DNA of 32,000 nt from Candidatus Jordarchaeales archaeon (lineage in GTDB: Archaea; Asgardarchaeota; Jordiarchaeia; Jordiarchaeales; Freyrarchaeaceae). Where the stretch lies: contig JAWCFL010000005.1 in assembly GCA_038858525.1 (NCBI GenBank), positions 1 to 32,000 on the forward strand, written 5' to 3'. The translations under genes were made by a program, and so were the position numbers. The notes beneath the pieces were generated by a model. The model did not search any database and was not told the DNA's origin. It saw only the letters and a list, made by a program, of their open reading frames with translations. Each line of letters opens with the position of its first letter. The stretch's first letter is position 1. Shown one piece after another: positions 28,453 to 28,834 of the stretch.

Positions 28453-28475
28453 CCCCATCATCACCCATAATTTAT

Positions 28476-28834
28476 GGGTGGTGGGTCTAGGCGGGCGGCT
28501 AGGGGTCGCCTGACGGGGAAGCTCCTGCTTCCCTTGACCGCAAATCCCCTATATGGCGGGCCGAAAGCCGGCGTGAGGCGTCTTCAACTCGCCACACATC
28601 CTTCACGCTAAGGCAATGAAAACTCGTCCCAGAGGGCTGGCGGTGGCCGTCCGCCCTCCGTAGGGAGGGTGTGTTCGGCCTTTACTAGGGAAAACCGGCT
28701 AGGCCCGGGAGAGCCGTCATGGCCTCGATGGAGCAACCTAACCCTAGACGTGTGGCGCTTCTGGGGGTGCGGGTTCGAGACCAAACGTGAAGGCCGTGGC
28801 GAGGGGTGGCGTCGATCGCCGGGACTCACCACCC
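28476..28834 (+). ncRNA. ffs: Signal recognition particle (7S) RNA with two insertions
   Basis: 12-bp helix 1 GGGTGGTGGGTC/GACTCACCACCC; Alu helix 3 (28493-28511) and helix 4 (28538-28559) with loop-loop pairing TAGGG/CCCTA; helix 5 pairs (CCGGCG/CGCCGG, CTCGCCAC/GTGGCGAG, CCTTCACG/CGTGAAGG); helix 6 CCCTCC-GTAG-GGAGGG; helix 8 CTAGGG/CCCTAG with SRP54 motif TAGG...AGCA. Confidence 0.93.
28712..28729 (+). other. Putative 18-nt BHB-type intron in SRP RNA helix 8
   Basis: Central 4-bp helix CGGG/CTCG, bulges AG|A and AT|G, intron stem GCC/GGC; excision gives CCC-GGGA-GGG-AGCA. Confidence 0.7.

Follow-up and report, generated by a model that had tools for sequence, protein, structure and literature searches.

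The window, that is, the whole 32,000-nucleotide stretch of DNA analysed here, carries on its forward strand (28479–28831) an SRP (7S) RNA gene that matches Rfam family RF01857 over the full length of the model (positions 1–317) at 145 bits (E 1.5e-33), above the gathering score of 96.5 used as the cut-off for membership. It is the only SRP RNA gene copy in the 2.09-Mb, 63-contig genome, which belongs to the Asgard class Jordarchaeia. Two spurious open reading frames, of 74 codons (28608–28832, reverse strand) and 45 codons (28474–28611, forward strand), lie over the RNA and risk being annotated as hypothetical proteins. In the 5′ domain of the RNA, on the forward strand throughout, helix 3 (28494–28510; GGCGGC 28494–28499 paired with GUCGCC 28505–28510, loop UAGGG(G)) is followed by an extra helix, termed Hx here (28515–28534), and then by helix 4 (28538–28559; CCGC 28538–28541 paired with GCGG 28556–28559, 14-nt loop); the latter presents the sequence UCCCCU (loop 4, 28545–28550), which pairs with A28501–G28505 of loop 3. 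Farther downstream, the tip of helix 8 carries an 18-nt bulge-helix-bulge (BHB) insert (28712–28729), which is fitted by the intron scanner and served as its positive control.

The 8-bp stem of Hx is formed by GGGGAAGC (28515–28522) and GCUUCCCU (28527–28534), with seven Watson–Crick pairs and one G·U pair (G28515·U28534), and is capped by the loop UCCU (28523–28526). It is framed by U-G-A-C on the 5′ side (28511–28514) and U-G-A on the 3′ side (28535–28537), such that TGAC occurs at both 28511–28514 and 28535–28538, the last C of the second copy opening helix 4. The position between helices 3 and 4, the base pairs and the TGAC flanks agree with the first-pass annotation of this DNA, as does the U-G-U-G-A that is left when 28513–28534 are deleted. 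The 28-nt piece containing Hx folds at −14.1 kcal/mol, compared with a shuffle mean of −5.3 (z = −4.78), and none of 200 shuffles was as stable; the minimum-energy fold of the full-length SRP RNA includes both Hx and helix 4. Helices 3 and 4 are spaced by 27 nt here (28511–28537), and not joined directly by a short UGUNR U-turn. In the Infernal alignment to RF01857, 23 extra bases are treated as an unaligned insertion and forced into the helix-3 loop, at the price of non-canonical and mismatched pairs; judged against the sequences of relatives, this placement is wrong and the placement between helices 3 and 4 is correct. The Rfam model thereby assigns Hx to the helix-3 loop (28503–28525), with scores approximately 40–50 bits below those of canonical Asgard SRP RNAs, and many SRP genes of Asgard family f9 score under the RF01857 gathering score, so that automatic annotation will miss or distort them. 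The presence of Hx explains both the low Rfam scores and the mis-alignment of these genes.

The full TGAC repeat is peculiar to this genome and one relative from the same family (G004). The part that is constant in relatives is U-G-A before the hairpin, found in all 35 distinct inserts of this form (type A), and G-A after it, conserved directly 5′ of helix 4; next to the stem, each side has zero or one variable base (C·U, U·U, A·G, C·C, G·G, or a further Watson–Crick pair). Removal of the hairpin restores a UGUNR turn, as proposed, in this genome and its closest relatives alone; elsewhere it leaves UGAGA. The GA dinucleotides most likely form tandem sheared G·A pairs (G28512·A28537 and A28513·G28536) that would extend Hx to the junction, with U28511 as the sole linker and C28514 opposite U28535. 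In a second form (type B; Asgard family f19 and two Thermoproteota genomes, L114 and L115), a hairpin of 7–9 bp has 0–1 linker bases and the GA frame is absent, an arrangement that, as read from sequence, is a perfect four-way junction. In both forms, helices 2, 3, and 4 and Hx appear to meet in a compact junction that takes the place of the turn, and type B may be an independent origin of the same solution. The pseudoknot is changed too in the type-B RNAs (L089–L091 from family f19, L114, and L115), in which loop 3 reads CUCGGGG or CUCGGCC.

All 35 distinct type-A inserts, as recognized by the UGA...GA frame, fold as a clean hairpin of 4–9 bp with a 3–6-nt loop. The first pass had suggested an alignment of SRP RNAs from relatives as a check, and in such an alignment the hairpin is present and covaries. 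A covariance model was built from eight equal-length sequences, and 53 SRP 5′ domains were aligned to it; in this alignment, which is fitted to the model's own structure and, because the Hx columns of four genes with a helix-3 insert are misaligned, contains 36 true Hx cases, all six modelled Hx pairs have changed on both sides and 91.6% of cells are paired (pair counts in one example: AU 14, GC 13, CG 10, and GU 2). None of 500 shuffles reached the observed scores, and sliding the partners by 1–3 columns reduced pairing to 47–66%. Helices 2, 3, and 4 and five loop 3–loop 4 pairs are 91–100% paired in the same alignment and all covary; helix 3 is paired in 98.5% of cells and helix 4 in 100%, and the loop–loop pairs, which run here from A28501–U28550 through G28505–C28546, are paired at 98% in four cases and 91% in one. 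Because these helices and the pseudoknot covary around Hx, the Alu fold is kept. With respect to G28505, this base covaries with C28546 of loop 4 (GC 41, CG 7) and fails to pair with C28499 in 12 of the 53 sequences; on these sequence comparisons, it is more likely to belong to the pseudoknot, as its fifth pair, than to close helix 3. Neither the loop sequence nor the stem length of Hx is conserved, a variability that is as compatible with a tolerated, structural or even near-neutral expansion on a protein-free surface as with a functional helix or a specific contact.

Genomes were sampled as a set of 41, and then as a set of 151 from the Asgard phylum. The hairpin occurs at the same site in every SRP RNA found in Jordarchaeales (including Freyarchaeia), with differing stems: in three further genomes of family f1 (G002 and G003 from the same genus, and G004 from the same family) and in five of the sister family f2 (G005–G008 and G010), one of them the complete Freyarchaeia chromosome CP147778. 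The stems in this order are GAGGGGGC/GCUCCCUC, GGGGAAGC/GCUUCCCU, GGAGGG/CCCUCC, GAGAGG/CCUCUU, and GAGAGG/CCUCUC; the two genomes of the order in which the hairpin was not seen (G001 and G009) gave zero SRP RNA matches at all. Outside the order, Hx is present in Asgard families f10 (G018), f9 (G037, G046, G061, and further members), and f23 (G088), and in family f19 (G048, G069, and G104) an extra helix is present in the different, type-B form. Hx was not seen in representatives of 19 of the 25 Asgard families with a readable 5′ domain; two of these 19 (f12 and f13) have an insert of approximately 31 nt within the helix-3 loop instead. This patchy distribution shows Hx to be dispensable for SRP function in general. 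A strict sequence pattern run over 400 Asgard genomes confirmed the order and family f10, and is too strict for the divergent f9 genes, such that it gives no absence data.

A scan of metagenome and genome contigs with a helix-4 pattern yielded 58 loci (37 on metagenome and 21 on genome contigs), which, besides those of Jordarchaeales, are mostly labelled Bathyarchaeia, Bathyarchaeota, or Hecatellales (Thermoproteota). The hairpin is present at the same junction in all but five of them, the exceptions being L039/L082 and L043/L049, which have a plain 3-nt linker, and L067, the contig of which starts inside the hairpin. The stems of the Bathyarchaeia-type loci are unrelated in sequence (AAACCC/GGGUUU, GAGGC/GCCUC, GAACCC/GGGUUC, GGGGC/GCCCC, GGGAAGGGC/GCCCUCCC, and others). 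In a sample of 151 Thermoproteota genomes, the 5′-domain model matched 23, with 13 matches in the long form (81–88 nt); six of the 23 have only the short form (67–68 nt), in which UGUA or UGAA joins helices 3 and 4, so that in near relatives lacking the hairpin only these four bases fill the site. On these sequence matches, Hx is not private to one genome or lineage, and extends over several Asgard families and Bathyarchaeia-type Thermoproteota. The labels of three genome records (L072, L080, and L082) conflict with their content: a contig labelled 'Thermoproteota archaeon' has an Alu 5′ domain and a helix-8 insert identical to those of the Jordarchaeales genome G004, and a 'Thermoplasmatota' contig matches a Hecatellales gene over the same regions (Alu 5′ domain and helix-8 insert region). 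Coarse labelling or mis-binned contigs probably account for these conflicts.

We consider it probable that the hairpin adds a real helix to the Alu domain of the SRP RNA and is kept in the mature RNA. The expansion helix suggested by the first-pass annotation draws support from its conservation, from its covariation, and from the fact that no splice motif fits it, and only its restriction to one lineage has to be given up, given its occurrence in other Asgard families and in Bathyarchaeia-type genes. In the canonical Alu domain, as in the structure from Pyrococcus horikoshii, helices 2 and 4 are coaxial, the U-turn connects helix 3 to them, and this turn and the neighbouring helices are bound by human SRP9/14 (PMC4238359). 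Helix 3 of the canonical archaeal form is held beside helix 4 by the 4–5-nt U-turn (UGUNR) together with the loop–loop pseudoknot. As a self-contained hairpin of 4–9 bp inside the turn, Hx would join helices 2, 3, and 4 at what is otherwise a three-way junction and make it four-way. In type A, the common form and that of this genome, sheared G·A pairs in the U-G-A/G-A frame would extend Hx and leave one unpaired U, and in type B the hairpin abuts helices 3 and 4 with 0–1 linker bases. Because helices 3 and 4 and the pseudoknot remain intact, Hx most likely stacks under helix 3, pointing away from the pseudoknot, as strand continuity suggests. Hx would then project from the face that is covered by SRP9/14 in eukaryotes and is protein-free in archaea; a search of this genome for SRP9 and SRP14 homologues found none at E ≤ 1, in keeping with the earlier statement that archaea lack these proteins. 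The role of Hx is likely to be structural, by rigidifying or extending the Alu fold, and Hx may add a contact to helix 5, the ribosome, or a protein. More tentatively, it is possible that Hx acts as a functional stand-in at the SRP9/14 face, an RNA arm, perhaps with a kink-turn protein, that might clamp the 5′ domain onto helix 5 or touch the small ribosomal subunit in elongation arrest. If so, several Asgard and Bathyarchaeia lineages would have solved by RNA what eukaryotes solved with SRP9/14.

Retention has to be weighed against removal of the hairpin as a small intron or processed spacer, in the manner of the helix-8 insert of the same gene, for which the U-turn-like UGUGA that would remain after removal could be cited. 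We regard this as very unlikely. No bulge-helix-bulge or bulge-helix-loop geometry fits Hx, the stems of which are continuous and have none of the required bulges, and in many Bathyarchaeia-type genes lacking a helix-8 insert, Hx is always present and its frame does not vary. A BHB was defined as two 3-nt bulges on opposite strands with a 4-bp helix between them and at least one further flanking helix; under the strict test, none of 32 sequences has a BHB with cuts that spare helices 3 and 4, and there is no shared position. Run on 20 distinct helix-8 inserts (Asgard and Bathyarchaeia-type), the same scanner placed a BHB exactly where predicted in 16, and it recovered the insert of this gene; the earlier failure to fit such a motif to the hairpin is borne out. 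We know of no other archaeal mechanism for removing such an insert. Two kinds of BHB fit were rejected. The sole good fit here (28503–28525) equals the Infernal mis-alignment and would destroy helix 3; it reflects a fortuitous AGCU palindrome that G002, G003, G004, and family f2 lack. Recurrent weak fits, seen in some Bathyarchaeia-type sequences, join the C-run of helix 3 to a G-run of Hx and would likewise delete helix 3. In the helix-4 pattern scan, in which all contigs obtained were at least 1 kb long, every Jordarchaeales-type contig has the helix-8 insert, and none of them therefore resembles mature SRP RNA. No open reading frame spans both Hx and the helix-8 junction. Helix-8 BHB inserts like that at 28712–28729 are not confined to Jordarchaeales, and occur in other Asgard families (L007, L092, L093, and L100) and in Thermoproteota-labelled SRP genes, the Bathyarchaeia-type carriers being L032, L040, L052, L055, L063, and L086; their geometry comprises a central helix of CGGG with CCCG, CUCG, or CUUG, and bulges AGA and AAG or AUG. 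In the Freyarchaeia-type locus L067 (Ga0068674_1038347), more than 100 inserted nucleotides break helix 8 directly downstream of CCGGUUAGG, in the helix-8 region approximately 150–260 nt past the helix-4 pattern; the inserts of relatives are much smaller, at 17–32 nt.

Other readings concern the origin of the hairpin or what it might do beyond extending the fold. Its form, an inverted repeat bounded by a 4-nt direct repeat, had led to the suggestion of a footprint left by a recent miniature inverted-repeat element with TGAC target duplication, with an assembly artefact as a further concern, and we give either of these hardly any credence: there is no further copy within three mismatches in the 2.09-Mb genome, the direct repeat is reduced to UGA...GA in relatives, and the feature recurs at the same site in dozens of independent assemblies. 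A conformational switch, in which the Hx strands would unpair, bind loops 4 and 3, compete with the Alu pseudoknot and so toggle between open and closed states, also appears improbable. The complementarities noted in the first pass exist, between GGGGA (28515–28519) and UCCCC (28545–28549) and between UCCCU (28530–28534) and AGGGG (28501–28505), and within Jordarchaeales the 5′ strand of Hx has 4–6 nt of complementarity to loop 4 (5–6 nt in 10 of 11) and the 3′ strand has 4 nt to loop 3; moreover, from family f1 to f2, the stem (GGGG, then GAGAGG) and loop 4 (CCCC, then CCUCUU) change in parallel. The mimicry of the pseudoknot partners is therefore real in this order, but it is not general: complementarity to loop 4 is 1–4 nt in Bathyarchaeia-type RNAs, with stems such as AAACCC/GGGUUU and GAGGC/GCCUC, and 1 nt in family f9, and the Jordarchaeales cases share one ancestor and so count as approximately one to two events. 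Furthermore, the minimum-energy fold includes Hx (−14.1 kcal/mol) together with helix 4, which the alternative pairing would have to cross.

Somewhat less improbable, although still doubtful, is that the UGA...GA-framed hairpin forms a kink-turn-like or k-junction-like site for a protein such as L7Ae, with a role comparable to that of SRP9/14. Such a site would be compatible with a retained helix, to which it would add a partner. Across the 35 inserts, the sequence of the frame resembles a kink-turn's non-canonical stem (a U followed by G-A in the 5′ strand, G-A in the 3′ strand, and a variable 3b·3n position: C·U, U·U, A·G, C·C, or Watson–Crick), and in Sulfolobus SRP RNA a kink-turn within helix 5 is bound by L7Ae (PMC5539422). 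However, the canonical stem of a simple kink-turn is impossible here, since the flanking strands belong to helix 3 (3′ strand) and helix 4 (5′ strand), which covary separately; just one base (U) is free as a bulge, compared with the 3-nt bulge of a kink-turn; type-B RNAs (f19, L114, and L115) carry the helix without the GA frame; and the U and G are simply those with which the ancestral UGUNR/UGAA turn begins.

The U-turn that links helices 3 and 4 is taken to characterize nearly all Alu-domain SRP RNAs, and in eukaryotes SRP9/14 docks on it. Its replacement by a covarying helix across entire archaeal lineages, relatives of the eukaryotic ancestor among them, with the rest of the fold kept, adds a structural class to SRP RNA, and marks a surface at which a lineage-specific partner or ribosome contact might be sought. 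The distinction of a retained helix from the true spliced inserts of the same gene also matters for intron annotation in these genomes. A review of 81 archaeal SRP RNAs assigns UGUNR to the connection of helix 3 with helix 4 and describes departures from the motif, its erosion, and eroded small domains, with no extra helix mentioned (PMC2905702); in the literature on SRP RNA in Asgard archaea and Bathyarchaeia, on L7Ae and kink-turns, and on the Alu U-turn, we found no description of this helix. Hx would therefore appear to be a new variant of a known RNA, one that is widespread rather than private.

In comparison with the canonical archaeal Alu domain (PMC4238359; PMC2905702), helices 1–5 and the loop 3–loop 4 pseudoknot are present and covary here too, likewise without SRP9/14, whereas the 4–5-nt UGUNR turn is interrupted or replaced by a 4–9-bp hairpin and the junction would be four-way, not three-way. 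Short inserts at conserved positions are also known from the BHB introns of Asgard SRP RNA genes, in part in the same genomes, and from the permuted SRP RNA of Thermoproteus (PMC4731332); the Asgard BHB inserts have a splice motif and vary widely in length, whereas Hx lacks one, varies little in size, and keeps a constant frame. With the L7Ae-bound kink-turn of Sulfolobus, Hx shares a tandem G-A signature in an archaeal SRP RNA, although the former is a simple two-strand kink-turn in helix 5 near motif 5e and the GA pairs of Hx would lie at a multi-helix junction (PMC5539422). The stem-loops in helix 8 of Basidiomycota SRP RNA and the fungal helices 9–11 are, like Hx, lineage-wide additions inside a conserved element, and are retained in the mature RNA, as we infer for Hx; unlike Hx, they are eukaryotic, lie in the S domain or helix 5, and are accompanied by changes in Srp54 (PMC4605306). 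Of these cases, the retained helix-8 stem-loops of Basidiomycota are the nearest precedents for Hx (PMC4605306).
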